Source of the DNA: Patescibacteria group bacterium UBA918
Lineage (GTDB): Bacteria > Patescibacteriota > Minisyncoccia > Phycocordibacterales > UBA918
Reading direction: 5' to 3'
Length of the DNA stretch: 64,000 nt
Assembly: GCA_002293845.1 (NCBI GenBank)
Contig: DBEA01000010.1
Coordinates: 565 to 64,564 of the forward strand
Shown: in pieces, positions 1,175 to 63,117 of the stretch
How positions within the stretch are numbered: position 1 is the first letter of the stretch
How the letters are laid out: each line of letters opens with the position of its first letter
Program-made: the position numbers and the translations under genes
The notes under the pieces: generated by a model
The model's input: only the letters and a program-made list of their open reading frames with translations
Told to the model about the DNA's origin: nothing
The model's database searches: none

Positions 1175-1180
1175 TATGAT
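1175..1180 (+). promoter_or_regulatory. -10 hexamer TATGAT with a 6-nt spacer (TTTCGC) to ATG 1187, a leaderless-type promoter
   Basis: Direct read of catgcTATGATtttcgcATG. Confidence 0.4.
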
Positions 1181-1186
1181 TTTCGC

Positions 1187-1996
1187 ATGAGGTCTTATAT
1201 ATTCGCGGTCGCGATCATGATGTTCGTCTTGCCGATCGTAGCGACGGCGCAGGCCGGTGGGCTAGTGCCATGTTCAGGTCCGGATTGCACCACTGAGTCG
1301 GTGGTCGGTCTGGTCAATAATCTCATCGACTGGCTCATTTCGGCGCTGGGAGTCATCGCGGTCATCGTGATGGTCTATGCCGGTTTTAAGTTAGTGATGT
1401 CGGCCGGAAACGAGGATGAATGGGGTAAGGCGAAGGAATTGTTCCAAAATGTCATCATCGGCATCATATTGATATTGGCCGCTTGGCTCATAATCGACAC
1501 CGTGTTGAAAGGTCTGACCGGTAAAGGATTGGACGGCTGGACCAAAGAGTTGGCCGCTCCCGTTCCGAATGTGAACAATCCGTCGATCACCGGAAATTCT
1601 AATGTCGCCGGCGCAGGCCAGTATACCGACACAGAGGCACGTCAGGCTTTGGCCGCGGCCGGGATAACGGTATGGGAATCGTCTCCAGGTGCCACTAGCC
1701 TCGCCAATATCAATCAGGCCACGATAAACGAAGCCGTGAGTCTCAAACAGGCTTGTGGTTGTCAGGTGATAGTGACAGGTGGCACGGAGTCCGGAGTTCA
1801 CGCGAGCGGACAATATAGTCACTCTTCAGGTTATAAGATAGATCTCGACGATACATCCGGTCTCAATAATTACATCACGAGCAACTATACCTATGTGGGA
1901 CCACGAAGCGGTGACGGAGCTCTGATGTATCGCTCATCCGATGGCAAGAAAATATACGCTAAGGAAGGGGACCATTGGGACGTGTTGGTGCAGTAA
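1187..1996 (+). CDS. Secreted TrbC/VirB2-like pilin-domain protein with a C-terminal putative peptidase-M15-like (Zn D-Ala-D-Ala carboxypeptidase fold) domain
   Basis: Signal peptide MRSYIFAVAIMMFVLPIVATAQA, then two hydrophobic helices split by a short loop (LISALGVIAVIVMVYAGFKL...VIIGIILILAAWLIIDTVL), as in T4SS pilins. The C-terminal 150 aa carry VTGGTESGVHASGQYSHSSGYKIDLDD, resembling the M15 S-x-H-x-x-G-x-A-I-D zinc-ligand block. Confidence 0.4.
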   Translation: MRSYIFAVAIMMFVLPIVATAQAGGLVPCSGPDCTTESVVGLVNNLIDWLISALGVIAVIVMVYAGFKLVMSAGNEDEWGKAKELFQNVIIGIILILAAWLIIDTVLKGLTGKGLDGWTKELAAPVPNVNNPSITGNSNVAGAGQYTDTEARQALAAAGITVWESSPGATSLANINQATINEAVSLKQACGCQVIVTGGTESGVHASGQYSHSSGYKIDLDDTSGLNNYITSNYTYVGPRSGDGALMYRSSDGKKIYAKEGDHWDVLVQ

Positions 1997-2053
1997 ATTC
2001 GTTAAAAACGAATTTCGAAATGGTATTATGTAGCATATATTCATGCTACGAAA

Positions 2054-2713
2054 ATGAAACAGATAAAGAAGCAAGAAGCGTTTAATTTAAGAAAAAGTGG
2101 TTATTCCTTGAGAGAGATTAGTAAAATGTTAAATATCTCTCAAAGTACAGCCTCTGTCTGGCTCAGAGGTTTGAGGTTGCCCCCTTCTGCGATCAAAGAA
2201 TTGGCAAGGAAGACAGAAAATGGCAGGAGACAAGCTTCGATCGCTAGAAGGGATGAAACGCGCAAGGCCCTAGCAAGCGCAGCGACACTGGCGCAGGAAA
2301 CGAAAAAAAGGGCAAAATATGACAGGGCTGATCTGAAGATAATGTGCGCCATGATCTATCGGTGTGAAGGTTCAAAAACCATGAACGATAGCGCGCTAGT
2401 GTTTACGAATTCAGATCCAGAATTAATATCGTTTTTTCTTAGATTGTTCAGAAAAACCTTTAAAGTAAATGAGGAAAGGTTCCGGGTTTTAGTCCATTTA
2501 CATGACTATCATGACCAAGAAACACAGTTGCGTTTTTGGTCCAAAGTCACTAATATACAACGGTCGCAGTTTTTAAGGCCTTATAAGAAAAGTAATACCG
2601 GCAAGCATAAGAGGTCGAATTACGAAGGGTGTGTTTCATTGCGCTATCACGATGTGAGGATAGCCAGAGAAATACAGGCCTTGGCCAGAATTGTGATGAA
2701 ATCGGGCCTATAG
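2054..2713 (+). CDS. HTH-domain protein with a C-terminal single-motif LAGLIDADG-like endonuclease domain
   Basis: N-terminal HTH (YSLREISKMLNISQSTASVWL). C-terminal LKIMCAMIYRCEGSK resembles the LAGLIDADG motif-2 of the two other HEG ORFs (LRGLIQTDGSV, LRGLYEAEGSL). AT-rich. The TAG stop (2711-2713) lies inside tRNA-Trp. Confidence 0.45.
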   Translation: MKQIKKQEAFNLRKSGYSLREISKMLNISQSTASVWLRGLRLPPSAIKELARKTENGRRQASIARRDETRKALASAATLAQETKKRAKYDRADLKIMCAMIYRCEGSKTMNDSALVFTNSDPELISFFLRLFRKTFKVNEERFRVLVHLHDYHDQETQLRFWSKVTNIQRSQFLRPYKKSNTGKHKRSNYEGCVSLRYHDVRIAREIQALARIVMKSGL

Positions 2714-2774
2714 TTTAATGGTAAAACAGCCGCCTCCAAAGCGGCCGTTCCCTGTTCGAGTCAGGGTGGGCCCG
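2704..2774 (+). tRNA. tRNA-Trp (anticodon CCA)
   Basis: Cloverleaf read by eye: acceptor GGGCCTA/TGGGCCC, D stem GTTT/AAAC, anticodon stem GCCGC/GCGGC with loop CTCCAAA, T arm CCCTG-TTCGAGT-CAGGG, discriminator G. No encoded CCA. Confidence 0.8.
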
Positions 2775-2776
2775 CA

Positions 2777-3673
2777 CTATTTACGCTCCAGAAAAGCGCT
2801 GACTTCAACAGTGATTTTATTGTCGCCGCGATGAAACCATCTGATCTCTCGATCACGTCTCAGCCAGGACATTTGGCGTTTAGAAAACTGCCGGCTCTTT
2901 ATGGTCAGTTCTTCGATCATTTCATTCAAGGGCATGAGGCCGCGAAGATAACGAGAAAGATAACGATACTCAAGGCCAAATTTTTCAAGCCTCTCATGAG
3001 TGACCCCCTTCTTCAGTAGTCGCCTCACTTCCTCTGCCATGCCTGCGTCTAGTCGTTCCAGAATTCTAGTTTTCAATACTTCACCGTGAGTCTCCATATC
3101 TACCATTAATCCGATGGTGAGAATCGCGTATGGACATTCTTTAACCTCTGTCTCCGGGACGCGGCCGAGTGAACGAGCGATCTCAATGGCGCGGATCAGT
3201 CGGCGCGGATTTTCTTTTTCTATAGACTGGGCTCTTGCCGGATCTAGTTTTTCTAATATCTCGAACAATTCGGCGGCACTTTTTTCTTCGAGTTCGGCGC
3301 GCAGTTCCTCGTCGGGCTCAACGTCAGGTAACGACGTTTTGCCTAAGAGAGCATCGATGTAGAAAAAGGTGCCGCCGCAAATTATCGGTAATTTTCCTCG
3401 CGCGATGATGTCGTCGATGGCGAGTAGCGCATCGCGCTTGAAGTCGGCGGCGGTATACACCTCTTTCGGATCGGCGACGTCGAGCAGGTGATGCGGCACA
3501 CCGTCCGTTTCTTTCGGCGTCACTTTGGCCGAGCCGATATCGAGGCCACGATATACTTGCCTTGAGTCGGCCGATATCACCTCGCCATCGAACTTTTTCG
3601 CCAATTCGATCGCCAATCCGGTCTTTCCGGAAGCGGTCGGTCCGACGATGACTATGATCTTAGATTTGGTCAC
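2777..3673 (-). CDS. miaA: tRNA dimethylallyltransferase
   Basis: P-loop IIVIVGPTASGKTGLAIELAKKF and overall MiaA-like sequence. GTG start, with TATATT 7 nt upstream. Confidence 0.85.
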   Translation of the reverse strand: MTKSKIIVIVGPTASGKTGLAIELAKKFDGEVISADSRQVYRGLDIGSAKVTPKETDGVPHHLLDVADPKEVYTAADFKRDALLAIDDIIARGKLPIICGGTFFYIDALLGKTSLPDVEPDEELRAELEEKSAAELFEILEKLDPARAQSIEKENPRRLIRAIEIARSLGRVPETEVKECPYAILTIGLMVDMETHGEVLKTRILERLDAGMAEEVRRLLKKGVTHERLEKFGLEYRYLSRYLRGLMPLNEMIEELTIKSRQFSKRQMSWLRRDREIRWFHRGDNKITVEVSAFLERK

Positions 3674-3731
3674 AAGGGGGAATATACCCCTATGCTGACT
3701 TTTTGTATAGGCTAAGTCGATTTAATTGTAC

Positions 3732-4325
3732 TCAACATATTTGCTCGTTCTCTTTTTTCAAACTTATCTCGGCGATAAATCTATTTACGTCACGAGATAA
3801 CCTCACCGTGTATTTAGGGCGGCTGCTTTTTTGGCTCGCGCTATAAATTTTTGGTTGATAGCCGAGTATTTCCATCATACTCTTCACATCCGTGGCCAGA
3901 TCTAAAATATTATTGGTAAAATTCACCATCTTGTAACCGCGGTCTGAATAGACACTCCCATCTGTCTGTATTAATCCACGAAGGCAAGCTGAGATGTACA
4001 TATTGTCGCGAAATATCCAACCAGGTACTCTGACGTTCTGTTTAAATTTTGAGCCCTTACCCACTTTCCACGGCATATAGATATCTAGTGCGTTTGAATA
4101 CACACTAATGTTGAAATAGGTATCGCGGGGACCGTTTACTTTACTGACTTTATTTTTGGGAAATAGTAAGTTAAGGGCAATACATATATCGTTTTCTATG
4201 CCTGGATAGGCCGCGTCACATGTTATTCGAAGACGTGTGGCACGTTTATTGGGTCTGGATAAATTACCATCGCCCATAGCGACTCCAATGATATATGCCA
4301 AATTTACTTTGGCAGCCATTAGCAT
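3732..4325 (-). CDS. LAGLIDADG homing endonuclease (two-motif, free-standing)
   Basis: Motifs LAYIIGVAMGDGNL and LRGLIQTDGSV. AT-rich. TATAAT 6 nt upstream of the ATG. Lies 35 nt downstream of tRNA-Leu on the same strand. Confidence 0.8.
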   Translation of the reverse strand: MLMAAKVNLAYIIGVAMGDGNLSRPNKRATRLRITCDAAYPGIENDICIALNLLFPKNKVSKVNGPRDTYFNISVYSNALDIYMPWKVGKGSKFKQNVRVPGWIFRDNMYISACLRGLIQTDGSVYSDRGYKMVNFTNNILDLATDVKSMMEILGYQPKIYSASQKSSRPKYTVRLSRDVNRFIAEISLKKENEQIC

Positions 4326-4359
4326 GCCTAGATTATACCCTGGTTGTGCTTCAAAATTG

Positions 4360-4443: not shown

Positions 4444-4582
4444 AAGCAAGAGGAGTTTAGCAGAAATATCGCCTATCCACAAAGCCCTTTTTCCTTATGA
4501 TACAATCTAATAAATCACGAAAAAGGTGACGTTTTTGGGCGAGTGATTTTTCCATTTTGAGATTTCAATTTTAAATTTTCCT

Positions 4583-5734
4583 ATGTCTTTTCAAGGCGAT
4601 TCCATCTTCTGGGTAGAACTCGACAAGATCGTACCGAACCCGTTCCAGCCACGCCGAGAATTCGACGAGGCAAAGCTAAAAGAACTGGCCGAATCGATAC
4701 GCATGTATGGCGTCCTACAGCCTCTCACCGTCACTCGCCGCGAGCGTTCGCGTGACGACGGTACTTTTTTTAGCGAGTACGAACTTATCGCCGGCGAACG
4801 GCGTTTGCGCGCCTCCAAGATAGCAGGATTGTCTCAGGTGCCGGTCATTATCCGCCAGGGAGAACAGACCGAGCAGGAAAAACTCGAGTTAGCCATCATC
4901 GAGAACCTGCAACGCGAGGATCTCAATGCCGTCGATCGCGCGATGGCGTTCCAGCAACTGAATCAGATGTTCAATTTGAATCACGTGCAGATCGCCGCCA
5001 AGATGGGCAGGAGCCGCGAATATGTGTCGAACACACTCAGACTTTTGGCTTTGCCCGAGACCATCTTGAACTCTTTACGTCGCGGCGAGATCAGCGAAGG
5101 ACATGCCCGCGCGCTCTTGATGCTCGCCGACCGACCGCAAGAACAGGACGTCTTATATCGCGAGATCTTGCTCAAGAAGATCTCGGTGCGCGAGACCGAA
5201 CGTATCTCTCGCAAGATCGCCACCGAGAGAGTACGTAAACATCAGTGGCGCGACACGGATCCGACTTTGATCGAGATCGAAAAGAAGTTCACCGAGAGTC
5301 TGGGTACGCGCGTCCAGATCAAAAAGACCGAGTTCGGCGGCACTGTCAGCATCGACTATTTCGACCCTTCCGAATTGCAAAAGTTGCTTTCACTGCTCGA
5401 TAAGCCGTCCGGCGTCGTCGTGACCCCCGGCTCTCTCGAAACCAGCGATACCGTGAGCGACACTTTGAAGGAGGAAGCGGCCGAAGCCAACGAGGTGATC
5501 GCTAAGCTCGAGGAGAATACGCCGCTCGAAGCGGCGTCGTCGGGGCCCTTGCCGCCGGCGCTCGATACCCTGGTCACGCCTCCGGAGGTAGATACATTAG
5601 TGACACCGCCACAAGTTAGGCCTAGAGAGGATATAGTCGTTGAAACTTCGAGGGAGTTACTGAACAAGATCAGTGAGTCTAGAAAGGAGAATGACGAAAG
5701 CGACATGTATTCCATAAAAAACTTCAACGTTTAA
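4583..5734 (+). CDS. parB: ParB/Spo0J chromosome partitioning protein with a long acidic/Pro-rich C-terminal extension
   Basis: ParB box region IVPNPFQPRREFDEAKLKELAESIRMYGVLQPLTVTRR and HTH GLSQ...AAKMGRSREYVSNTLRLL. C-terminal tandem DTLVTPPEV/DTLVTPPQV repeats. No parA adjacent. Confidence 0.85.
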   Translation: MSFQGDSIFWVELDKIVPNPFQPRREFDEAKLKELAESIRMYGVLQPLTVTRRERSRDDGTFFSEYELIAGERRLRASKIAGLSQVPVIIRQGEQTEQEKLELAIIENLQREDLNAVDRAMAFQQLNQMFNLNHVQIAAKMGRSREYVSNTLRLLALPETILNSLRRGEISEGHARALLMLADRPQEQDVLYREILLKKISVRETERISRKIATERVRKHQWRDTDPTLIEIEKKFTESLGTRVQIKKTEFGGTVSIDYFDPSELQKLLSLLDKPSGVVVTPGSLETSDTVSDTLKEEAAEANEVIAKLEENTPLEAASSGPLPPALDTLVTPPEVDTLVTPPQVRPREDIVVETSRELLNKISESRKENDESDMYSIKNFNV

Positions 5735-5772: not shown

Positions 5773-7305
5773 TCCAATTCCGCGCGGATGTGTCGTCGGG
5801 CCATGGTGGTCTTGGCCGATTCCAGCCACTTGCGCGTCGGTTTTGCGTTCTTCTTGGTCACTATCTCCACAATGTCGCCATTCTTTAGTTCGGTGTCTAG
5901 CGTGACGAGTTTGTTGTTCACTTTGGCTCCCGAGATCTGATTGCCGACCTCCGAGTGGATGGCGTAGGCGAAGTCTATCGACGTGGCTCCGACCGGCAGG
6001 TCTACCACATCACCGATCGGGGTGAATACGAAGATGCGATGCGTGAAAAAATCGTTCCGCATATCCTCGACGAACTCCGCTCCGGAATCCGGCGCGGAAT
6101 ACATTTCGCCGATCTGGCTGATCCATAGCGGGATCTTCATTTTGGCCGGCGCGTCTTTAGCTACGGCCTCGGTCTTGCCGCTACCGCGTCGGGAGAAAGG
6201 GCGGAACAGACTCGGTATGAGCTGAGCGAACCAGTTTTCCGAACGGTTCTGCGATTGGCCGCTCTGGGAGTTTTTGTAGATGATGTGCGAAGCGATGCCG
6301 TACTCCGCTTCCTGATTCATCTTTTCGGTGCGGATCTGAATCTCGAGGATGTTGCCGCTACTGGTAGCTACGGTAGTGTGGATCGATTGGTAACCGTTGG
6401 GTTTCGGGAAGGCGATGTAGTCTTTGACGCGTTGCGGCAACGGCCGCCACATGTCGTGAATCACTCCGAGCACTTTGTAACAATCCTCCATATTGCCCAA
6501 GACCACGCGCATAGCTAAGAGATCGTACACCTGGTCGATGTCCCAGCTCTTGCGCTTCAACTTTTGATAGAGGCTATATAGACCTTTGACGCGATAAGAA
6601 GTATTGAAATTACGGATACCCGCCTCGGCCAGTTTCTTTTGTAAGGCCTTCCGCTCGCGCTCTAGACGCTCCTCGTACTTGCCGATCTTGTTCTTCAAAA
6701 GCTCCAGCACTCGTTTGTGCTCCTCGGGATAGACGTAGGGGAAGGCCAAGTCTTCGAGTTCTTTGCGGATACGGCCCATGCCGAGGCGGTGAGCCACTGG
6801 CACGTATATCTCCAAGGTTTCCCTGGCGATGCGCAGACGCTTCTTCTCCGGCACATGCATGAGGGTCGTCATATTGTGGAGTCGGTCCACCAGCTTGATG
6901 ATCAACACACGAATGTCCTGGCTCGTCGCTACGAACAATTTGCGCAACGATTCGTTGTGTCGATCGCTGCCGTAGTACCTGACAGAAGAGAGTTTGGTCA
7001 CTCCCTCCACCAGGAATAAGATCTCCTCGCCGAAATCGCGACGGATATCCTCTTCGGTGATGTCCGTGTCTTCAATGGTGTCGTGAAGTAGCGCGGCGGC
7101 TACCGTGCGCGCACCCATACCCATCTCAGCGAGGCGGAGGGCCACTGCCGTGACGTGAGTCATATAGGGCTCGCCGGAATAGCGAGTATGGTCAGCGTGC
7201 GCCCTGGCGGCCACGTCGTAGGCTTTGGTGACGAGCGCCTCGTCCTCCTTGGTCGGAGAAGAAAGGTGGCCCACAATATCCTTGACGGAGATCATTCGTT
7301 CAGTA
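5766..7305 (-). CDS. rel: Bifunctional (p)ppGpp synthetase/hydrolase, RelA/SpoT family (HD + synthetase + TGS; short form)
   Basis: HD motif LLHDTIEDT, synthetase region and TGS domain (GDVVDLPVGATSIDFAYAIHSEVG). The track start is 7349. I place the start at the internal ATG 7305 (MISVKDIV...): TATACT sits 6 nt upstream, and the distance to SGEPY matches SpoT N-termini. Confidence 0.8.
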
Positions 7306-7544
7306 TAAAGCGCAAAGGCGAAAGTGGAAAGTGATTCTCGCTTTGACACGATCCGCTAATTGCTCTAGGCTATGTTTTTGGAGAGTAGAGGAGAGGGGAA
7401 TGAAAGAGCCACAGAAGCCGCCGAAACCCCAGATTTGTTCGATATGCGGGTATCGTGTCGCAGTACCTTGCGACACGGGGAAAAAAGGGTATTGCCCCCA
7501 GCTTCGTCAACCTGCACTCAAGTCGGCGAAATAAGAATGACGAA

Positions 7545-10015: not shown

Positions 10016-10879
10016 TCAACCAAGTTTTCGGTACATCCCGCCGTCCTCTTTGATGAGGCCGTTCATCTCCATACGCATCAAAATAATAGCGACCGACTCG
10101 GTCGGAAGCTCTGAGCGGCGGATCAAAAGATCGCGTTCTTGCGGTTCGGAAAGCAGGTTGATGATGGTCTGTTCTTCGAGCGACAAAAGGGGAGTGAAAC
10201 TCGGCGCGCGGTCGTCTTTGATCTCGATCCCGAGCGTGTCGAGAATATCGGCCGCTTCGGTGACCGGCCGCGCGCCGAGTTTCATAAACTGATGCGTACC
10301 TTTGGAATTGTCCGAAAAGATGCTCCCGGGCACCACCAGGAGTTCACGATTATAGTCGACGGCGAGACGAGCGGTGATCAGGGAACCGCTTTTTTCGCCG
10401 GCTTCGATTATGAGCGTAGCTTGCGATATTCCCGCCACCAATCGGTTACGCTCCGGAAATGACCAGGTGATGGCCTTGAAATCGGGATCGTATTCGGAGA
10501 GTAGCCCGCCGCCTTCTTCGAGTATTTTGTGCGCCAATCGCAAGTGAGCGCGGGGATAGATGACGCCGTCACTTAAACCGCCGCCGGGAATGGCCAGTGT
10601 GTATAGACCGTTATCGATAGCCGTTTGATGCGCCAGCGAATCGATACCGAGTGCGAGGCCGGATACTATTCCTATATTATGTCCGCGTAGTCCGGAGATG
10701 AGGTGGTCGACGACTTGCTTGCCATAGTTGGTGTATTTGCGCGAACCGACGACCGACAACAGCTTCATTTTCGGGTCGGGCAGCACGCCGCGATAATTTA
10801 GCCGCTTCGGTGGTTGGGGAATTTCAAAAAGGGCTCGGGGAAAATCACTTTTTGCTAGTTCATCGACGGGGAAGTCCAT
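10016..10879 (-). CDS. dprA: DNA processing protein DprA (Smf)
   Basis: VVGSRKYTNYGKQVVDHLISGLRGHNIGIVSGLALGIDSLAHQTAI Rossmann-like DprA core. TAGAAT 7 nt upstream of the ATG. Confidence 0.8.
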   Translation of the reverse strand: MDFPVDELAKSDFPRALFEIPQPPKRLNYRGVLPDPKMKLLSVVGSRKYTNYGKQVVDHLISGLRGHNIGIVSGLALGIDSLAHQTAIDNGLYTLAIPGGGLSDGVIYPRAHLRLAHKILEEGGGLLSEYDPDFKAITWSFPERNRLVAGISQATLIIEAGEKSGSLITARLAVDYNRELLVVPGSIFSDNSKGTHQFMKLGARPVTEAADILDTLGIEIKDDRAPSFTPLLSLEEQTIINLLSEPQERDLLIRRSELPTESVAIILMRMEMNGLIKEDGGMYRKLG

Positions 10880-10902
10880 TCCTTACATTCTAACATCTAA
10901 TA

Positions 10903-13600: not shown

Positions 13601-13673
13601 CGGAACCTCCTTTGGTGGCTATATAATTTAGCCATTATTTTCAACATTTTGCAAGTCGTGTTAGTCTGAGCCG

Positions 13674-14696
13674 GTGAATTTTTGGAAAGACCTGCCAAAA
13701 CCCATATTCGTTTTAGCGCCGATGGCGGACGTCACTGACGCGGCTTTTCGACGGATGATCGCCAAGTATTCCAGACACGCGCGGGCTGACGGCAGCGCAG
13801 GCGGACCGGATGTTTTTTGGACCGAGTTCGTCTCCGCCGACGGCTTGGCCCGGGCGACCGACGAAGGAAAAGCCAAACTCATGGCCGACCTTATCTATAG
13901 TGAAGAAGAGCGGCCGATAGTGGCGCAGTTATTCAGTTCGAACGAAGAATATATGGAGCAAGCCGCCGCACTGTGTCGCGAACTAGGCTTCGACGGCATC
14001 GATATCAACATGGGCTGTCCGGACCGTTCGATCGAAAAGCAGGGTTGTGGCGCGGCCATGATCAAGAATCCGGCGAAAGCTCGTGCCATCATTCGAGCCG
14101 CGAAGCGCGGCGCCGGTCCTTTGCCGGTGTCGGTCAAAACTCGCGTCGGTTACAACAAGGACGAACTTGAAACATGGTTGCCGGAGATCTTGGCCGAGAA
14201 TCCGGCCGTGGTCACGGTGCACGCGCGTACTCGGAAAGACATGTCAAAAGTGCCGGCCAGGTGGGAGAGAGTGACACGCGCGGCCCTGATCCGTAATGAA
14301 CTCAAGAGTGATACTTTAATTTTTGGCAACGGCGACGCCTTGTCGCTTGAAGACGCGAAACAGAAAGCGGAGCTTGCCGGCGCCGACGGCGTGATGTTGG
14401 GAAGGGCCATTTTCGGCAATCCTTGGCTTTTCCATCCACACAAGGACCTGTCGAACGTGTCTCTGGAAGAGAGGTTCAGTGTTCTTGTCGAGCATACCAA
14501 GCTCTTCGAGGAGCTACTGCCGCACAAGAGTTTCGCTATCATGAAGAAGCATTACAAGGCGTACGTGCACGGCTTTCCCGGCGCGGCCGAGCTCCGGGCC
14601 GAGCTGATGGAAGCCAAGGATGCGCGCGAGGTGGAGGTCATCGTTACTGAATATCTTCACCCCAGTGTTAATAAGTGGTGGAGGTTTTGGCGTTAG
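13674..14696 (+). CDS. dus: tRNA-dihydrouridine synthase
   Basis: FVLAPMADVTDAAFRRM FMN-binding signature and TIM-barrel Dus core. GTG start. Confidence 0.85.
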   Translation: MNFWKDLPKPIFVLAPMADVTDAAFRRMIAKYSRHARADGSAGGPDVFWTEFVSADGLARATDEGKAKLMADLIYSEEERPIVAQLFSSNEEYMEQAAALCRELGFDGIDINMGCPDRSIEKQGCGAAMIKNPAKARAIIRAAKRGAGPLPVSVKTRVGYNKDELETWLPEILAENPAVVTVHARTRKDMSKVPARWERVTRAALIRNELKSDTLIFGNGDALSLEDAKQKAELAGADGVMLGRAIFGNPWLFHPHKDLSNVSLEERFSVLVEHTKLFEELLPHKSFAIMKKHYKAYVHGFPGAAELRAELMEAKDAREVEVIVTEYLHPSVNKWWRFWR

Positions 14697-14712
14697 GCCT
14701 TATACTTAAAGC

Positions 14713-14991
14713 ATGACCGAAATTTTGCAAGCGAACGTTTTCTTCTTCATCACGGCCATGTCTGTGGTGGTGTTCACGATCTTCTTATGCGTGGCGATGT
14801 ATCTCGTCATCAGGATATTGCGTTCCGTGCGTAATATCACCGAGCGGATCGAGTCTGGAAGTGAGACCATCGCCGAGGACATCAAGCAGCTTCGTGCCTA
14901 CGTGGCTCAGGGCAGTTTGATATCGCAGATCGTCGGTCTCTTCGTTAAAAGTAAGCGCTCGCGCACACGTGAGTCAGCAGACGAACAGTAA
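14713..14991 (+). CDS. Hypothetical membrane protein (N-terminal TM + coiled coil)
   Basis: ORF with TATACT 6 nt upstream of the ATG. No family recognised. Confidence 0.5.
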   Translation: MTEILQANVFFFITAMSVVVFTIFLCVAMYLVIRILRSVRNITERIESGSETIAEDIKQLRAYVAQGSLISQIVGLFVKSKRSRTRESADEQ

Positions 14992-15640: not shown

Positions 15641-15671
15641 AACGGCCGGCACTGAAAGTGCCGGCCGTTTT
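15641..15671 (+). terminator. Intrinsic terminator
   Basis: AAAACGGCCGGCAC-tgaaa-GTGCCGGCCGTTTTCG. Confidence 0.7.
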
Positions 15672-15704
15672 CGATTGTCCTGGTAGATTCTAGTTTCCGG
15701 ATTC

Positions 15705-15712
15705 TGTATACT
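15705..15712 (+). promoter_or_regulatory. Extended -10 TGTATACT, 6 nt upstream of the dnaX ATG (leaderless type)
   Basis: attcTGTATACTaacccgATG. Confidence 0.45.
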
Positions 15713-15718
15713 AACCCG

Positions 15719-16756
15719 ATGTCAGACACTTTGGCTCTCTATCGTAAGTATCGCCCCGTTTCGTTTGCCGAAGTGCGCGATCAAGAACATATAGTCTCCG
15801 TACTCGAAGGAGCCGTGAAAAAGCAGGTCTATCCGCACGCGCTCCTATTTTGTGGCTCGCGTGGGACCGGCAAGACCACGCTAGCGCGCATCTTCGCGCG
15901 CGCCATCGGCACGCATGAGACCGACATTTACGAAATAGACGCAGCCTCTAATCGTAAGATCGAACACGTGCGCGATTTGCGCGAGGCGGTGCATACCTTG
16001 CCGTATCAATCTGAAAAGAAGGTCTACATCATCGACGAGGTGCACATGCTCACCACCGAGGCCTTCAACGCGCTTTTGAAAACCCTCGAAGAACCACCGG
16101 CTCATGTGGTGTTCATTCTAGCCACGACCGAAGAAGACAAGTTGCCGGACACCATCAAATCTCGTTGTCAGATCTTCCGTTTCCGAGCTCCCTCGCGCGC
16201 CGTCCTTAAGGAAACGGTTTTAGATATCGCCAAAAAGGAAAAGTTCAAGCTCGATGCCGATGCGGCCGAACTCGTGGCCATCGCCGCGGACGGTTCCTTC
16301 CGCGACGCACTCGGCGTCTTACAGAAAGTCATGATCGCATCCGGAGACGCTAAGGTCACGGCCGACGAGGTGGCGGTCATCATCGGCGCGCCAAAAAAGG
16401 ATCTTTTGATGAAGCTCCTCTTTGCACTGAACGCGAAGAAGGCGGACGATGCCTTGTCCGCGGTGGCCACGGCTTTAAGCTCCTCGGTCGACATGAAGAT
16501 ATTTATGCGTCTTATTTTGGAACGCGTGCGTGCCGTCATGTTGTTGCGCAACCTGCCGGCGCGCCGTGAGGAGATCCTCTCGGCGTTCGGCGAAGACGAT
16601 GGTGTTCGACTTGAAGAGTTCGCTAAAATAGCCGGGTCGCCGATAAACTCCCGCTTGCTCCTGCGCCTTCTTGAGGCCGCGGACATGTCATCGCGTTCGG
16701 AGTTTCCGCATATCGCGCTCGAGATCGCCATCGTCGATCTATGCGAGGAGAAATAG
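15719..16756 (+). CDS. dnaX: DNA polymerase III subunit gamma/tau (short form)
   Basis: Walker A GSRGTGKTT, DEVH box IIDEVHMLT, sensor region ATTEEDKLPDTIKSRCQ. Confidence 0.8.
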   Translation: MSDTLALYRKYRPVSFAEVRDQEHIVSVLEGAVKKQVYPHALLFCGSRGTGKTTLARIFARAIGTHETDIYEIDAASNRKIEHVRDLREAVHTLPYQSEKKVYIIDEVHMLTTEAFNALLKTLEEPPAHVVFILATTEEDKLPDTIKSRCQIFRFRAPSRAVLKETVLDIAKKEKFKLDADAAELVAIAADGSFRDALGVLQKVMIASGDAKVTADEVAVIIGAPKKDLLMKLLFALNAKKADDALSAVATALSSSVDMKIFMRLILERVRAVMLLRNLPARREEILSAFGEDDGVRLEEFAKIAGSPINSRLLLRLLEAADMSSRSEFPHIALEIAIVDLCEEK

Positions 16757-17718: not shown

Positions 17719-17776
17719 GGAAGGGGCGTGCAGGCGCAAGTCATCTAATGGTAGAAAATTTTGCTATTATTAGTGA

Positions 17777-18481
17777 ATGGCGCATATCTCGTGGAGCAAG
17801 GGTCACACAAAGGATACTCACCCCTCGGTTCGGAAAATTTCCGAGACGATGAAGAAGAGGAAGGTGGATAATTTTGCCGCATGGCGTGAGCAAGCCAAGA
17901 AAAAAGGAAAGTTTAAGTCAGTTTACAAGGCTTTGCCGGAGGGCGGCGACTTAGCCGAGTTGATCGGTGTGATTTTGGGTGACGGTCATATTCAAAAGTT
18001 TCCTCGCACCGAAAGGTTGCTGATCTTTTCAAACGCCAACAACCCGGGCTTTGTAAAGCGTTATGCTGATATAGTGGAAAGGTTGTTTGAAAAGAAGCCT
18101 TACGTGTACAAGCAAACATCGAAGAACTGTATACGTATTAGTCTGTACGAAAAACATATCAGTCAGCGATTAAAGATCCCTACAGGTGCGAGAGGTAAGT
18201 TATATTTCTCGGTTCCGCGTTGGGTTATGCGCGATAAAACCTATGTAAAGCGTTACCTTCGAGGTTTGTATGAGGCAGAAGGAAGTCTATCGTTTCATTC
18301 CGCCACGTACACGCATAAATTCATCTTTTCCAATAGAAACGTGTCGCTATTGAAAAATGTCGAAAGATTGCTTAAAGTACTAGGGTTTTCACCCCACTCA
18401 AACAAAGAGAGTGTCCAACTGTCCAGAAAGGACGAGGTGAAGAAAGCCGCCCAGTTGCTACGGTTCAGAGTCTACAAATAA
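17777..18481 (+). CDS. LAGLIDADG homing endonuclease (two-motif, free-standing)
   Basis: LAELIGVILGDGHI and LRGLYEAEGSL. TATTAT 6 nt upstream of the ATG. The stop lies 6 nt before tRNA-Gln. Confidence 0.8.
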   Translation: MAHISWSKGHTKDTHPSVRKISETMKKRKVDNFAAWREQAKKKGKFKSVYKALPEGGDLAELIGVILGDGHIQKFPRTERLLIFSNANNPGFVKRYADIVERLFEKKPYVYKQTSKNCIRISLYEKHISQRLKIPTGARGKLYFSVPRWVMRDKTYVKRYLRGLYEAEGSLSFHSATYTHKFIFSNRNVSLLKNVERLLKVLGFSPHSNKESVQLSRKDEVKKAAQLLRFRVYK

Positions 18482-18637: not shown

Positions 18638-18658
18638 AATCGAAGGTATAATGTTCTC

Positions 18659-19359: not shown

Positions 19360-19686
19360 CTATTGCAAAGTTGCGAGGGTGAGTACTATCGCCGTCACTA
19401 TGCCGAAGAGGCCGATGGTCTTGAAAAAGTAAGACACGGCTTCCGCTCGTTTATTATCGACGAGTAAGGATACTGGTTGGTAAAAGAACAAGAACGCCAT
19501 CACGGCCGCGGAAAAAACGAATAACGACATAAAGCCGACGCCGTCGATCCAGGTGTCAGGGGTGTCGTGACGGATCGACTCGATAAAGCGCAAAAACACG
19601 GACACGGCGCCGATGTAAGCGACCGCCAAACCGGCGTTTAAAAACGGATGCCATTTCATACGCTCATTATAACTCCGTAGAGCCAT
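19360..19686 (-). CDS. Hypothetical membrane protein (3-4 TM)
   Basis: ORF with hydrophobic segments; divergent from the putative copper module. Confidence 0.45.
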   Translation of the reverse strand: MALRSYNERMKWHPFLNAGLAVAYIGAVSVFLRFIESIRHDTPDTWIDGVGFMSLFVFSAAVMAFLFFYQPVSLLVDNKRAEAVSYFFKTIGLFGIVTAIVLTLATLQ

Positions 19687-22315: not shown

Positions 22316-22349
22316 GACCATAGCAATCGAAAAATGCTATGATGTCCGT

Positions 22350-46158: not shown

Positions 46159-46184
46159 CGTATTAACTTTGTTATACTTCGGCT

Positions 46185-46622
46185 ATGAAAACACGTTTCC
46201 CGTACGTTTGCGCCGTCTTTTTGCTACTGATTGAAGACGGAAAGATATTGTTGCAGAGACGGTTTCAAACAGGTCATGAAGATGGCAATTATGGAGTGCC
46301 TTCTGGACACATGGATGGTGGCGAAACTCCAAGAGAGGCTTGCGCCCGAGAGTGTGCCGAAGAAATTGGCATCAAAATCCGACCTGAAGATTTAACTATG
46401 GTTCATACAATGTATCGATCTAGCGAGAACGAACGCGTTGATTTCTGTATGACCGCCAGTCGTTATGAAGGCGAGGTACAGAACATGGAAACACACAAAT
46501 GTGACGACTTACAGTGGTTTCCGCTCGACGCATTGCCAGACAATACGATTGATTACGTACGTCAAGCGATTACGGCCTATCAGAAGGGCGTGACATATTC
46601 GGAATATAAACCAGCTGACTAG
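46185..46622 (+). CDS. NUDIX hydrolase
   Basis: Nudix box GETPREACARECAEEIG. TATACT 6 nt upstream of the ATG. Confidence 0.8.
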   Translation: MKTRFPYVCAVFLLLIEDGKILLQRRFQTGHEDGNYGVPSGHMDGGETPREACARECAEEIGIKIRPEDLTMVHTMYRSSENERVDFCMTASRYEGEVQNMETHKCDDLQWFPLDALPDNTIDYVRQAITAYQKGVTYSEYKPAD

Positions 46623-55141: not shown

Positions 55142-55164
55142 AACTTCCAGACTCAGGAAAAAAC

Positions 55165-55200
55165 AGGGCGGCCCGCAGGGCCGCCCTGTTTTTTCCTCTA
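55165..55200 (+). terminator. Intrinsic terminator AACAGGGCGGCCC-gcag-GGCCGCCCTGTTTTTTCC
   Basis: Perfect stem plus T-run after secY. Confidence 0.8.
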
Positions 55201-55215
55201 AAAATCTGTTAATCT

Positions 55216-55794
55216 GTGGATGTGAAAAACGCTGACACGCGGTATCAAAGCATCATCTTCATGGGAAAGACCGGGTGCGGAAAAGGTACTCAAGCACACC
55301 GCTTGGCGGCAGACTTCGGCTACGATCTTTTCTCTACCGGCGACCGCGTGCGCGCGTTAAGCAACGAGGACACTTCCCTCGGTCGCCATATCAGGGATAT
55401 CCACATGAGCGGCTGGGTGCCTGAATGGCTGGCTAGTTATCTTTTTGCCAAGGCAATTTTAGAGGAGGACATCGATCATGGTTTGGTCTTCGAGAGCGTG
55501 GCCAGGAAGCCGGAAGAGGCTAAGAAACTCCATGAGATGCATCACATGCTCAATCGTTCCTACGTGGTTCTGCACTTGGATGCCGCGGACGAGGTGGTGA
55601 TCGATCGAATGCGCAAACGCCAGCGCGACGCTTCCGATTCTGAAGAGAACATCAAGAAACGGTTACAGGCTTTTTATGACGAAACCGTCCGTTCACTCGA
55701 GTTTTTCCGAGAGCAGGGCAAGGTCGTCGATATCGATGCCACCAGATCACCGGACGAAGTGTATCAAGAAGTGTTAAAAGCTATCGCCAAGTAA
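55216..55794 (+). CDS. Adenylate-kinase-family NMP kinase, divergent paralog (LID/NMP-binding motifs altered)
   Basis: P-loop GKTGCGKGTQ, STGDRVR. ESVARKP replaces the canonical DGFPRT. Confidence 0.65.
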   Translation: MDVKNADTRYQSIIFMGKTGCGKGTQAHRLAADFGYDLFSTGDRVRALSNEDTSLGRHIRDIHMSGWVPEWLASYLFAKAILEEDIDHGLVFESVARKPEEAKKLHEMHHMLNRSYVVLHLDAADEVVIDRMRKRQRDASDSEENIKKRLQAFYDETVRSLEFFREQGKVVDIDATRSPDEVYQEVLKAIAK

Positions 55795-57899: not shown

Positions 57900-58145
57900 A
57901 TTTTCAGAGGACTGATAAAGCATGTTCCGAGTTATGCAACATTTAGGGCTGCCTTTAGACTCGGTTTCCTATGAGAATCCCTCGGGACTTTCAGACAGTT
58001 ACCGGTACGGGTGCCCACCTGGCACAGCGCCGGGGACATGCTCAGTCCGACGAATTCGCCTCCATTCTCGCCGTAAAGACGACGTTGTGGTGAGAGTGGA
58101 GGCGGATTCTGAAAGCTCCGTCTGTTGACGGAGCTTTTGTATTTT
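57900..58145 (+). ncRNA. Terminator-bounded ~220-nt segment ending in hairpin AAAGCTCCGTC-tgttg-ACGGAGCTTT TGTATTTTT. Candidate sRNA or attenuator, or a 68-aa ORF (57922..58128).
   Basis: No conserved protein features in the ORF. The second terminator is 20 nt before the next gene. Confidence 0.3.
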
Positions 58146-58166
58146 TCGACGTGATAAAATCGATAC

Positions 58167-58553
58167 ATGATAAAGCCGGTCACTACAATCTTCGTCATAT
58201 CCGCTTCGATACTGGCCACCACTAATTATTTGGCCATCGAGTTCTATCTATATTGGTATTATCCGTGGATCGATCTGGTCACTCATTTTCTCGGCGGAGC
58301 GGTGGCCGCCTTAGGGGCGTTTTCTTTGAAGGACTTTTGGCCGCGATTTCCAGGACGAGCACTTCGTTTATCTATAATCATCACTTTCGTGTTCCTGGTG
58401 GCCGTAGCTTGGGAGGCCTTCGAGGTTTGGGCCGGCATTTCTATGAACGAACCGGGGTATGCTTTAGACACGGTGCTGGATCTCATCATGGGTCTATCGG
58501 GCGGTGGCGTCGGGTATTTTGTCGGCCGTAACGTGAGAGATTTAGACCTATGA
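58167..58553 (+). CDS. Hypothetical membrane protein (4 TM)
   Basis: tgATAAAAT 6 nt upstream of the ATG. Not CrcB-like or SMR-like by motif. Confidence 0.5.
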   Translation: MIKPVTTIFVISASILATTNYLAIEFYLYWYYPWIDLVTHFLGGAVAALGAFSLKDFWPRFPGRALRLSIIITFVFLVAVAWEAFEVWAGISMNEPGYALDTVLDLIMGLSGGGVGYFVGRNVRDLDL

Positions 58554-61231: not shown

Positions 61232-61831
61232 TTAAATCAACCCCCCTTCGATGAGCTCGTCCAAGGACTTCTTTTTGGCCCTCTTGGCCTCCTCGGCGGC
61301 GGTTTCGGTCGGTTTAGGGTACGTTTTCACCACGTCGATCTCGCGACCCTTTTCGAATTTGGCTTTACCTTCGCGTTCCAAGGTGACGGTGTAGCCCTTA
61401 GGGCTTTTTTTGATCGGATCGGCGATCTTGTATTCGATCGGGATGATCTTGAGGAAGCGCTCCAGACGATCGGTGAGGAAGGCCGGTTCCATGTACTTGT
61501 AGCGTCCCGACAAGAACAGGTCCACTTTGACGCGATGTCCCTCCGAGAGCCATTCGGCCGCACGGCGAGCCTTGAGTTGCTGATCGTGGTCGCCGGTGAT
61601 CACCTTGACCTGTACCGACTTGGTCTCGGTGACGTGGGACTTGCTCTTTACCTCGCTGGCCTTCCTTTTGGTCTCATATCGGTACTGACCGAAGTCCATG
61701 ATCTTGGCGACCGGGGGATTGGCGTTCGGACTGATCTCGATGAGGTCGAGTCCGGCCTCGTCGGCCGCCTTTAATGCCTCATCTAGTAGCAACACCCCCA
61801 GATTTTCGCCTTTGGCGCCGATCACGCGCAA
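61232..61831 (-). CDS. infC: Translation initiation factor IF-3. The track ORF begins at a TTG; the true N-terminus extends upstream with a probable non-AUG start.
   Basis: In-frame upstream codons encode ...DRTRINRAIRAKE-LRVIGAKGENLGVL, matching the IF3 N-domain (E. coli RINGEIRAQEVRL). Classic infC-rpmI-rplT order. Confidence 0.85.
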   Translation of the reverse strand: MRVIGAKGENLGVLLLDEALKAADEAGLDLIEISPNANPPVAKIMDFGQYRYETKRKASEVKSKSHVTETKSVQVKVITGDHDQQLKARRAAEWLSEGHRVKVDLFLSGRYKYMEPAFLTDRLERFLKIIPIEYKIADPIKKSPKGYTVTLEREGKAKFEKGREIDVVKTYPKPTETAAEEAKRAKKKSLDELIEGGLI

Positions 61832-62032
61832 CTCCTTCGCCCTGATGGCGCGATTGATGCGAGTACGATCCTTTTGGTTGTAGCTTGGTCGCGGATTGTT
61901 CAGATTTTTTTCTCTTAATGACTAAAAGGCGGAGCGCTTATTAGTGCATGGAATATAACACAAAATAGGGAATAGTGAATAGGGTTTTGGTGATGCCCTT
62001 AATATAGGCTGTTCCCAATCATAAAAATGACT

Positions 62033-62069
62033 ACGGTAAAATGTACCTGTAAACAGGTACATTTTACGT
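62033..62069. repeat. AT-rich palindrome ACGGTAAAATGTACCTGT-a-AACAGGTACATTTTACCGT (family P, copy 3)
   Basis: Shares TAAAA..TACCTGTwAACAGGTA..TTTTA with the copy at 27385. Confidence 0.75.
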
Positions 62070-62079
62070 CGGACTTTGA

Positions 62080-62472
62080 CTAGGTTCTGCCATGATGTCC
62101 GCACTTGCATCCGTACGGTTTAATGTATTCGTCGAAGTAGACCTTTCCATAGTCATAAGTGAGCTCTTCGCCGGCCTTGATCTTCCGCTTGGCCTCTATC
62201 CCGATCTCGTTCGCGTCGGTATAGTGCACGGCTTCGCAATTGGGGCGGCAGGAATGATTAATGTAGCGGGCCAGATTGGACCTTCCCGATCCGTCGATGG
62301 TCCATTTCTCGTCCAGGTCGAACTGATAGCGGTTCGGCTTCCTGTCCGCTTCCGCGTGGCTGATCTTTTTGCCGGTATATTCGATGATCAGATCGCCCTT
62401 GTCCCAGTCGCGCAACGTCTTGAGGCCGAGACCGGCGCTCGATTTGAATACTTTGAAATCCTTCTTCGACAT
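62080..62472 (-). CDS. SET-domain protein (putative protein-lysine methyltransferase) with Cys-rich post-SET
   Basis: NHSCRPN, ELTYDY, CKCGHHG. Confidence 0.7.
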   Translation of the reverse strand: MSKKDFKVFKSSAGLGLKTLRDWDKGDLIIEYTGKKISHAEADRKPNRYQFDLDEKWTIDGSGRSNLARYINHSCRPNCEAVHYTDANEIGIEAKRKIKAGEELTYDYGKVYFDEYIKPYGCKCGHHGRT

Positions 62473-62520
62473 AATAGCGACGATACTAACATGCTTTGAT
62501 CGTCTGTTAAAATAAAGCGC

Positions 62521-63117
62521 ATGTTCGAATGGATACTACACGTCATCGAGGTCGGAGGATATGGCGGCATCTTCACGTTGATGGTGCTTGAAAACGTCTT
62601 TCCTCCCATTCCGTCGGAGGTGATCCTGCCGCTCGCCGGTTATTCAGTGGCCACTGACGGCATGAGTCTCTTATCGGTGATCATGGTCGCGACTTTGGGT
62701 ACGGTGGTCGGCACTATGCCCTGGTATATAGCCGGACGGGTTTTCGGCGCTCGTCGGCTGAAGGCTTTGTCCGTGCGCTATGGTCGGTGGCTAACGCTTT
62801 CTCCTAGCGATATCGAGGCGGCCGAGGCTTGGTTTCAAACGCATGGAAAGAGGGCGGTCTTGTTCGGTCGTCTCATTCCGACCGTGCGCACGCTCATCTC
62901 GGTACCGGCCGGAATCGCGCATTTGCCGCTCCCGACCTTCCTCCTGTACTCCTTCGTCGGTAGCTTGCTGTGGACGTCGTTGCTGACTTATCTCGGTTTC
63001 ATACTTGGCAATCAACACGAGCGCGTGGCGGAATACCTGAATCCGGTTTCCGACCTCGTCATTTTGGTGATCGTGGCGGTCTATCTCTATCGCGTCGTCA
63101 CTTTCAAGGTTAAGTGA
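62521..63117 (+). CDS. DedA/VTT-family membrane protein (paralog 2)
   Basis: DedA core; TAAAAT 7 nt upstream of the ATG. Confidence 0.7.
   Translation: MFEWILHVIEVGGYGGIFTLMVLENVFPPIPSEVILPLAGYSVATDGMSLLSVIMVATLGTVVGTMPWYIAGRVFGARRLKALSVRYGRWLTLSPSDIEAAEAWFQTHGKRAVLFGRLIPTVRTLISVPAGIAHLPLPTFLLYSFVGSLLWTSLLTYLGFILGNQHERVAEYLNPVSDLVILVIVAVYLYRVVTFKVK

Follow-up and report, generated by a model that had tools for sequence, protein, structure and literature searches.

Putative leaderless genes with start-proximal -10 boxes in a Patescibacteria genome

Our analysis of a 64-kb stretch of contig DBEA01000010.1 (the window) from Patescibacteria group bacterium UBA918, an ultra-small CPR organism of a Parcubacteria-like lineage, revealed TANNNT hexamers that lie 6 to 7 nt upstream of many start codons. 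These hexamers are predicted to be the -10 boxes of leaderless genes of the type termed group C by GeneMarkS-2, with transcription presumably starting at or beside the start codon. The predicted leaderless class comprises approximately 20 to 26 of ~80 genes in the window (about a third), and would include roughly half of the genes predicted to lead transcription units.

A preliminary description of this DNA had proposed that the hexamers are -10 boxes and that transcripts begin at or next to the AUG, and every indirect test that was run supports this proposal. The peak in spacing, the TGnTATAAT profile, the location of the genes first in operons or behind terminators, divergent gene pairs, the starts of Pfam domains, and conservation in distant relatives all argue for promoters and leaderless transcripts. 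Leaderless initiation itself is an already known mode, whereas its apparent occurrence in CPR/Patescibacteria, a large uncultured lineage for which our literature search found no report of such initiation, would be new.

We consider it probable that the hexamers are housekeeping sigma-70-type -10 elements that yield mRNAs without 5' UTRs. RNA polymerase usually starts transcription ~7 nt beyond the -10 hexamer; thus, a hexamer located 6 nt from a start codon would direct transcription from that codon. In the proposed mechanism, a -10 box that mostly resembles TGnTATAAT and lacks a recognizable -35 element would end 6 (sometimes 7 to 8) nt 5' of the start codon, and RNA polymerase would begin at the A or G of AUG or GUG, or 1 to 2 nt earlier. 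The resulting mRNA would carry neither a 5' UTR nor a ribosome-binding site. The 8-nt spacers in the window, and spacers of 8 to 9 nt in several orthologues, would give leaders of 1 to 3 nt, such that these mRNAs would not be strictly leaderless.

Spacing of hexamers relative to start codons

An enrichment check proposed in the preliminary description was run within the window, and showed a TANNNT peak at 6 to 7 nt (p ~ 1e-8). For this motif-blind test, the start of the longest ORF was used for each of 80 window ORFs. A 6-nt spacer was found in 14 genes and a 7-nt spacer in seven, and other spacers had a mean of ~2.2 genes each (Poisson p = 1.2e-8 for spacers 6 and 7 jointly, and 1e-7 for 6 alone). 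Gene calls were dispensed with entirely in a count that took each TANNNT-Nk-ATG/GTG at the head of an ORF of 60 aa or more without an upstream in-frame ATG. This count produced 18 instances in the window for k = 6 and 12 for k = 7, compared with ~4 elsewhere. Internal in-frame ATG and GTG codons of the window exhibit no TANNNT peak at 6 to 7 nt.

On re-reading, 18 of the 20 hexamers and spacings listed previously are as given (14 with 6 nt and four with 7 nt). Six further sites were found, at 19659 (-), 13674 (GTG), 55222 (GTG), 62472 (-), 32142 (-), and 33383, the last two with 8-nt spacers. Chance is expected to account for ~4 to 5 of the ~21 to 26 sites, and the weakest candidates are parB, the MGMT-like gene, the SET-domain gene, and adk.

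Sequence profile of the hexamers

When 26 sites were aligned on TANNNT and only the unselected positions were read, the hexamer positions favored T (16 sites), A (19), and A (16), which corresponds to TATAAT. G is present at -14 in 20 of 26 sites (77%), and TG occupies -15/-14 in 13 of 26, versus a background of 7.4% (p = 8e-9). By sequence, most of the hexamers are of the extended -10 class, TGnTATAAT, of sigma-70 type, and they are predicted to have promoter activity. A two-hexamer scan for a -35 element gave 23, 17, and 12 matches, versus 17.1, 17.0, and 12.1 in shuffles, and no column at -38 to -28 of the 26-site alignment is informative. Because a -35 element is not detectable, the strength of these promoters would derive solely from the -10 box and TGn.

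The 26 sites have 22 ATG, four GTG, and no TTG start codons, with spacers of 5 to 8 nt, and the only SD-like 4-mer is the AGGA that abuts the ATG of dprA. The four GTG starts are less certain than the ATG starts. GUG at the 5' terminus functions poorly in E. coli and is functional in mycobacteria. It is also functional at this position in Deinococcus (PMC4007540).

Individual sites and start codons

The first site, tgcTATGAT-N6-ATG (1172..1189, + strand), contains TGn and precedes the first start codon of the ORF of a T4SS-pilin-like gene (1187-1996). The miaA gene (2777-3673) follows TATATT-N7-GTG (3671..3689, -), and its product matches IPT from residue 5 and IPPT from residue 39. A LAGLIDADG gene (3732-4325) situated 33 nt below tRNA-Leu has TATAAT-N6-ATG (4323..4340, -). 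For parB (4583-5734), the TAAATT hexamer reported earlier, without a spacing, is present with a 5-nt spacer and lacks TGn (TAAATT-N5-ATG; 4569..4585, +); this is a weak candidate. The site of dprA (10016-10879) is tgtTAGAAT-N7-ATG (10877..10895, -), and that of dus (13674-14696), whose Dus domain starts from residue 14, is tgtTAGTCT-N6-GTG (13659..13676, +). TATACT-N6-ATG is found upstream of both a 92-aa gene at 14713 (14698..14715, +), the putative promoter of which is within the 3' end of dus, and dnaX (15719-16756; 15704..15721, +).

A LAGLIDADG-like gene (17777-18481) carries tgcTATTAT-N6-ATG (17762..17779, +). TATAAT-N6-ATG precedes dgkA (18659-19000; 18644..18661, +), with its domain from residue 11, and also the divergent 99-aa gene at 19659 (19657..19674, -) and 122-aa gene at 19741 (19726..19743, +). 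Source calls for the gene at 19659 disagree, giving 99 or 108 aa. Next are a 101-aa gene at 22953 with TAGAAT-N6-ATG (22938..22955, +) and an MGMT-like DNA_binding_1 gene at 27030 with TAGATT-N6-ATG (27015..27032, +), a weaker candidate located 21 nt past the upstream gene, with its domain from residue 6. The RimK-like ATP-grasp gene at 32142 (TATAAT-N8-ATG; 32140..32159, -) is expected to have a leader of 1 to 2 nt, and its divergent partner is a 186-aa gene at 32199 (tgtTATAAT-N6-ATG; 32184..32201, +). A glycosyl hydrolase family 1 (GH1) gene at 33383, with its domain from residue 4, has tgtTATAAT-N8-ATG (33366..33385, +).

In the remainder of the window, a PspC-domain gene at 38818 (domain from residue 4) has tgtTACGAT-N7-ATG (38802..38820, +), and a NUDIX gene at 46185 has tgtTATACT-N6-ATG (46170..46187, +) with a 9/9 GC hairpin just 5' at 46132-46152. 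The candidate site of adk at 55222 is tgtTAATCT-N6-GTG (55207..55224, +). A 128-aa gene at 58167, annotated as DUF2238 in the source, carries tgaTAAAAT-N6-ATG (58152..58169, +). Finally, the SET-domain gene at 62472 has TATCGT-N7-ATG, or alternatively tgtTAGTAT-N10 (62470..62488, -), and is divergent from a DedA/VTT gene at 62521 with tgtTAAAAT-N7-ATG (62505..62523, +).

The preliminary description had also moved several start codons, and the shifts hold for rel and LRR, and for HAD as well; the one claimed for ftsQ was not located. For rel, the TATACT hexamer (7307-7302) and its 6-nt spacing stand (TATACT-N6-ATG; 7293..7310, -), but the ATG is at 7295, and not at 7305 or 7349; one source call, on a near-identical contig (L083), gives the same 509-aa product. 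The LRR protein starts at GTG 22350 (tgcTATGAT-N6-GTG; 22335..22352, +) instead of TTG 22311, as a GC-rich hairpin lies directly 5' of 22311 and the extension begins right after it. The HAD hydrolase starts at 38114 (tgcTACAAT-N6-ATG; 38099..38116, +) instead of 38024, and the extension from 38024 contains a terminator. From 38114, the source call is 228 aa, and the HAD domain begins 6 residues past this start. Overall, Pfam domains begin 4 to 14 residues past the proposed starts of the PspC, GH1, MGMT, HAD, miaA, dprA, dgkA, parB, NUDIX, dus, and SET genes.

Conservation in relatives

Distantly related Parcubacteria-like loci (208 kb) contain 52 sites with k = 6, versus a background of 12.8 (p = 1.5e-16), and TGn is found at 45% of their k = 6/7 sites versus 6% at other spacings. 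The same analysis applied to ~1 Mb of non-CPR loci gave a flat profile, with no 6-nt peak. Among 19 CPR dnaX orthologues, a -10 box is located 6 to 7 nt from the ATG in 11 and 8 to 9 nt away in six more. The orthologues compared share 46 to 53% protein identity, and the box sits in otherwise unalignable upstream DNA. In a syntenic relative (L087; 68% nucleotide identity), the layout is retained for dprA (tgaTATGAT-N7-ATG) and the 92-aa gene (TACACT-N7-ATG), with different spacer sequences, and the N-terminus of Dus from GTG 13674 lines up with the ATG start of the orthologue in L087. Rather than being specific to the UBA918 genome, the start-proximal layout of predicted -10 boxes is shared by Parcubacteria/Paceibacterota-like CPR bacteria as a trait of the lineage.

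Terminators and operon position

The genome has a mid-range GC content (0.52) and is very compact. Putative promoters often reside within the preceding gene or overlap the T-runs of terminators.

Most of the site genes come first in their predicted transcription units. At 19 of the 26 sites, the upstream gene is either divergent or 60 nt or more away, versus 19 of 52 other genes (p = 0.004), and co-directional gaps of <25 nt are found at three of 26 sites versus 20 of 52 other genes. Terminator hairpins with T-runs that end 22 to 50 nt before the start codon precede six site genes, versus two of 52 others; this distance leaves space only for a -10 box. All on the + strand, these include hairpins upstream of dnaX (15642..15668; -23.7 kcal/mol, 50 nt from the ATG), GH1 (33335..33356; -17.8 kcal/mol, 26 nt), and adk (55161..55191, following secY; -28 kcal/mol, 30 nt from the GTG), a 13-pair hairpin 28 nt from 58167 (58110..58139), and the strong intrinsic terminator of HAD (38068..38091; 10 pairs, -19.7 kcal/mol, TTTTTCTTT tail), which is 22 nt from the ATG. 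The start codons of the divergent pairs 62472/62521, 32142/32199, and 19659/19741 are 48, 56, and 81 nt apart, respectively, which is insufficient for two promoters and two leaders.

The hexamers might be real promoters that are secondary or internal, or that produce leaders of 1 to 5 nt, in which case longer transcripts, leadered or read-through, would be the source of most of the protein. The three sites with gaps of <25 nt (14713, 27030, and 38818, located 16 to 21 nt past a co-directional gene) fit this explanation, and these genes could be translated from read-through transcripts as well; the spacers of 8 to 9 nt found in the window, as well as in a number of dnaX orthologues, also fit. 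However, we regard it as unlikely, because most sites are divergent or bounded by terminators and thus beyond the reach of upstream co-directional transcripts, no alternative ribosome-binding site lies between promoter and ATG, and a sharp 6-nt spacing across distant lineages would not be expected if a 5'-terminal AUG were irrelevant. Moreover, by convention an mRNA with a leader of 5 nt or less still counts as leaderless (PMC4007540).

Leadered genes

Besides leaderless mRNAs, the preliminary description recognized genes with a classic SD and genes with G-poor leaders. GGAGG occurs twice in the window versus 0.78 expected (p = 0.18), and SD-like 4-mers precede 2% of window ORF starts versus 36% in non-CPR loci. 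SD motifs are thus at chance level, and the classic SD mode lacks support. Leadered genes, including ribosomal-protein operons, have CTAA-rich, G-poor leaders without SD. CTAA is present in 17 of 54 non-leaderless genes, versus 1.9 expected, is placed loosely at -5 to -23, and is absent from the predicted leaderless class. The enriched leader words are CTAA, CCTAA, and CTAAT, often in tandem, and T is at -1 in 56% of genes.

A genome without SD motifs needs some non-SD signal, and leadered genes do have A/T-rich CTAA/TAAA motifs near the start. TANNNT might therefore be an A/T-rich translation signal within longer 5' UTRs, as in Bacteroidota (GeneMarkS-2 group B), and not a promoter. This seems improbable, since the element has a specific sigma-70 extended -10 profile beyond general A/T richness, is largely missing from tightly packed operon-internal genes, which use the CTAA-type motif, and lies 3' of terminators that, 22 to 30 nt from four starts, leave no space for an upstream promoter and leader. 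Group B motifs, by comparison, precede first and internal genes alike (PMC6028130). An artefact of chance TANNNT in A/T-richer intergenic DNA and of start codons picked to fit the motif is suggested by an intergenic TANNNT density of twice the genome average and by the earlier shifting of rel, LRR, and HAD starts to the motif, but can be dismissed almost entirely, because the peak persists with motif-blind starts and without any gene calls, adjacent spacers upstream of the same genes do not rise above background, both TGn and the inner hexamer positions are enriched independently, and non-CPR DNA subjected to the identical analysis lacks the peak.

Comparison with known systems

According to Tsurumaki et al. 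(2022, PMC9297842), approximately half of the 16S rRNAs of Parcubacteria have lost the anti-SD motif. This loss agrees with SD motifs being nearly absent from the window and its relatives; that study addressed the rRNA side only, and left the initiation mechanism open. A tentative scenario, to which we give somewhat less than even weight, is that the Parcubacteria/Paceibacterota-like clade dropped SD pairing. In about half of all transcription units, the first gene would then be translated from an AUG that an extended -10 promoter places at the 5' terminus of the mRNA. Genes inside operons, and those with high expression, would depend on a new leader signal, a G-poor CTAA repeat, and this might be recognized by a remodeled 16S 3' tail or by the shortened bS1. 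If this is true, CPR would be a third large bacterial group, beside Actinobacteria and Deinococcus-Thermus, in which leaderless initiation is a main pathway, and this pathway would be tied to the reduced CPR ribosome.

The hexamers resemble extended -10 (TGn) sigma-70 promoters, as judged from sequence, in that half of the sites have TG, the consensus is TATAAT, and a -35 element is not needed.

Leaderless-rich genomes of group C include Actinobacteria such as Mycobacterium tuberculosis and Deinococcus-Thermus such as Deinococcus deserti, with an estimated 25-60% of transcripts affected, and the signal corrects gene starts (PMC6028130; PMC4007540). A start-proximal -10 signature is the one that defines this group (PMC6028130), and dRNA-seq has confirmed its validity in D. 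deserti (PMC4007540). As in UBA918, a Pribnow/TANNNT element is found 6 to 8 nt before the ATG or GTG of operon-first genes, which are those without SD (PMC6028130; PMC4007540). However, CPR/Patescibacteria are not among the clades named for group C in the portion of the GeneMarkS-2 description drawn on here (PMC6028130), and the remaining genes of group C use SD, whereas in UBA918 SD motifs are at chance level and leaders are CTAA-rich and G-poor. The leadered genes of UBA918 are instead like those of group B (Bacteroidota/Cyanobacteria) in being without SD, A/T-rich, and G-depleted just before the start, but differ in their words (CTAA/CCTAA/CTAAT) and in coexisting with a large predicted leaderless class. 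Thus, with a putative leaderless class and non-SD remaining genes, the UBA918 genome appears to be a hybrid of groups C and B.

Spacing of TANNNT hexamers relative to start codons

As the preliminary description had proposed, TANNNT hexamers are enriched 6 to 7 nt before the start codons of genes in the window. Of 80 genes predicted by a simple, motif-blind codon-usage caller that assigns the longest-ORF start, 14 carry the hexamer with its 3' end at a distance of 6 nt from the start codon and seven at 7 nt, against a mean of 2.2 at other spacings (Poisson p=1.2e-8 for 6 and 7 nt combined). A count that uses no gene calls gives 18 sites with a spacer (k) of 6 nt, 12 with k=7 and ~4 at other values of k, and internal in-frame ATG and GTG codons show no spacing peak.

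Hexamer and spacing were as reported for 18 of the 20 sites originally listed. The parB spacer is 5 nt long, and the rel start had been misplaced at 7305: the hexamer occupies 7307-7302, and the ATG lies at 7295. Six further sites are of the same type, four of them at 19659(-), 13674, 55222 and 62472(-), and two with 8-nt spacers at 32142(-) and 33383. The resulting 26 sites have spacers of 5 to 8 nt.

The hexamers resemble extended -10 promoters

When the 26 sites are aligned on the three fixed bases of TANNNT, the unselected positions are most often T (16/26), A (19/26) and A (16/26), which yields TATAAT. G occupies position -14 in 20 sites, and the dinucleotide TG is present at -15/-14 in 13 of 26, compared with 7.4% of all TANNNT occurrences in the window (p=8e-9). 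Judged by sequence, the aligned profile is that of a putative extended -10 sigma-70 promoter. Canonical -35/-10 promoters were dropped from consideration, because a two-hexamer scan for a -35 element gave about as many hits as shuffled sequence, and no upstream column of the alignment is informative.

Some TAAATT and TAATTT hexamers are located 6 to 7 nt before starts in the ribosomal-protein operon (47647, 50084 and 56393). These were rejected as promoters: they lie in short co-directional gaps, lack the extended -10 dinucleotide (TGn), and belong to the CTAA-type leaders discussed below.

Assignment of start codons

The 26 genes begin with ATG (22) or GTG (four), never with TTG, and most of the proposed starts are the earliest possible in their ORFs. 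Pfam domains begin 4 to 14 residues past the proposed start in PspC, GH1, MGMT-like, HAD, miaA, dprA, dgkA, parB, NUDIX, dus and SET proteins; thus, the true starts cannot be much further downstream. For HAD, the source gene call coincides with 38114, and a longer ORF would take in a terminator. The N-terminus encoded from the dus GTG at 13674 aligns exactly with the ATG of the orthologue in L087, a syntenic relative. For adk, the first beta-strand before the P-loop is retained only with GTG 55216 or 55222.

Public start calls conflict even for identical DNA from different samples, namely for dus (13674; 324 versus 340 aa), the 99/108-aa gene (19659/19686), LRR (22311/22350; 164, 181 or 189 aa) and adk (55216/55222/55261; 177 aa). 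Such disagreement among near-identical contigs demonstrates that the usual gene callers misplace starts in this lineage, and the -10-to-ATG rule settles all four cases. Start shifts had also been suggested for rel, LRR and ftsQ. The rel shift is borne out by one source call at 7295 on a near-identical contig, but no gene in the window is identified by Pfam as ftsQ.

Genomic context

The upstream neighbor is divergent or at least 60 nt away for 19 of the 26 genes, versus 19 of 52 other genes (p=0.004), and co-directional gaps shorter than 25 nt precede only three of 26, versus 20 of 52. A GC-rich hairpin with a T-run ends 22 to 50 nt before the start of six of the 26 genes (dnaX, GH1, HAD, adk, 58167 and, more weakly, dus), versus two of 52. 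Only 22 nt separate the end of the HAD terminator from the ATG, a gap taken up by the -10 box. The HAD start codon could be carried only by a transcript beginning at the ATG or by read-through. In three divergent pairs the start codons are separated by 48, 56 and 81 nt, and two back-to-back promoters fit into such gaps only if both mRNAs are leaderless.

Terminator hairpin, T-run, extended -10 box and start codon are packed into ~45 to 60 nt at 38068-38116, 58110-58169, 55161-55224 and 33335-33385, where the T-run overlaps the would-be location of a -35 element. Accommodating a terminator, a promoter and a start codon in ~45 nt, or two divergent promoters in 48 nt, illustrates extreme genome compaction.

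Other initiation signals

The G-poor CTAAA/CCTAA leaders noted previously are well substantiated. In 17 of 54 genes outside the 26-site class, CTAA lies no more than 20 nt from the start, with 1.9 such genes expected (p=3e-12). The words are often tandem and loosely placed between -5 and -23, and upstream stop codons do not explain them. T is found at -1 in 30 of these 54 genes (56%; p=5e-7). In leadered genes, most conspicuously in ribosomal-protein operons, the leaders are G-poor with tandem CTAA, CCTAA or CTAAT, as in 'ccctaatccctgaatcctaatcatt ATG'; examples are at 34680-34716, 47610-47646, 48405-48441, 52680-52711, 53835-53869 and 60820-60860(-). Such leaders may constitute a non-SD initiation signal.

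By contrast, classic Shine-Dalgarno (SD) sequences, claimed as a third initiation mode, occur at chance level: GGAGG is found twice, with 0.78 expected (p=0.18). The only well-spaced examples in the window are AAAGGAGG-N5-ATG before a 56-aa gene (13601-13618(-); start at 13600), GGGAGG-N5-TTG (32812-32829; start at 32830) and AAGGAG-N6-GTG before infC, which encodes IF3 (61826-61840(-)). These are no more than chance would produce, although individual genes may still use SD. An SD-like 4-mer stands ahead of 2% of the window's ORF starts, compared with 5% in Parcubacteria-like loci and 36% in non-CPR loci. No rRNA was found in the window, in loci of seven relatives or in the DNA just past either window end; the search yielded only tmRNA and smpB. 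The anti-SD motif is missing from about half of the 16S rRNAs of Parcubacteria, and the report of this loss left open how translation starts (PMC9297842). The near absence of SD sequences in the window fits this observation.

Conservation in relatives

In 15 Parcubacteria-like loci (208 kb; GC 0.32-0.50), the count without gene calls finds 52 sites at k=6, where the background predicts 12.8 (p=1.5e-16). TATAAT and TATACT are the commonest hexamers, and TGn accompanies 45% of sites with k=6 or 7 versus 6% at other spacings. In five loci that we classed as Saccharibacteria-like the signal is weak (p=0.04), and ~1 Mb of non-CPR loci retrieved with the same query has no peak (41 sites at k=6 versus ~40).

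Among 19 informative CPR dnaX orthologues, the -10 box lies 6 to 7 nt 5' of the ATG in 11 and 8 to 9 nt in six. The chance of at least 11 at 6 to 7 nt is 2e-8, and the flanking upstream DNA is unalignable. At 68% nucleotide identity, L087 is the only syntenic relative at an intermediate distance; it keeps TGnTATGAT-N7-ATG at dprA and TACACT-N7-ATG at a 92-aa gene, both with different spacer sequences; its dnaX spacer is 9 nt. Strain contigs L081-L086 and L167-L169, 99.7-100% identical to the window, are uninformative on polymorphism avoidance of the -10 box.

Features of the window

The window is compact, of intermediate GC content (0.52), with ~80 protein genes and three tRNAs, the only Rfam matches. 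The best dnaX matches are Paceibacterota/Parcubacteria MAGs (48-53% identity), and MAGs labelled Saccharibacteria rank next, which assigns the window to a CPR/Patescibacteria bacterium lacking a close sequenced species. Contigs 99.7-100% identical to the window are present in several public metagenomes; environments containing this genome are covered by JGI 3300005690 and 3300038816, ENA ERZ761600, SRR5325116 and SRR2119805/6. Positions 1-4000 have a GC content of 0.44, versus 0.50-0.55 elsewhere, and hold a T4SS-pilin-like gene and an HTH gene. This segment may be variable or acquired, because the pilin gene is in only one other public contig, versus 7-10 for genes further in.

Within 3732-4443 and 17777-18559, two free-standing LAGLIDADG-domain genes adjoin tRNA-Leu (4359-4443) and tRNA-Gln (18488-18559), respectively. 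Several distant CPR loci also have tRNA-Gln just 3' of dnaX (tRNA matches at ~11.1 kb in L004, L014, L092 and L095). Two tandem adenylate-kinase-like genes, both with an ADK Pfam match in the source annotation, follow secY within the ribosomal-protein cluster (55222-56392). A 130-aa SET-domain protein (62080-62472(-); Pfam SET, E=4e-25) is encoded divergently to a DedA/VTT gene. The contig L171 carries smpB and a tmRNA gene (804-2363; Rfam RF00023, 114.7 bits) ~3.4-5 kb past the right end of the window.

Predicted leaderless transcripts and known systems

In established promoter geometry, transcription begins ~7 nt past a -10 hexamer; with a 6-nt spacer, +1 would therefore coincide with the first base of the ATG. 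From this geometry we infer that the transcripts would be leaderless, or would carry leaders of 1-2 nt with 7- to 8-nt spacers, and that they would be translated by ribosomes binding the 5'-terminal start codon directly.

Much of bacterial diversity belongs to the CPR/Patescibacteria, for which MAGs are almost the sole source of knowledge, and the gene starts in these MAGs are set by SD-oriented callers. For the genetic systems now emerging in Patescibacteria, TGnTATAAT-N6-ATG may serve as a minimal expression signal.

Leaderless genes are a well-known feature type, but their prevalence in CPR, combined with an SD-free genome, seems not to have been described before. In open-access full-text literature we found no description of leaderless genes or initiation signals in CPR, Patescibacteria, Parcubacteria or Saccharibacteria, and the sole related report is the anti-SD observation (PMC9297842). 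The leaderless layout offers a concrete answer to how Parcubacteria without an anti-SD might start translation. In Deinococcus deserti, 60% of mRNAs are leaderless, and direct binding to the 5'-terminal start has been shown (PMC4007540). The sites in the window have the same signature, a Pribnow box near the start, as that which defines the group C genomes of GeneMarkS-2, where the box lies 6-8 nt from the start (PMC6028130).
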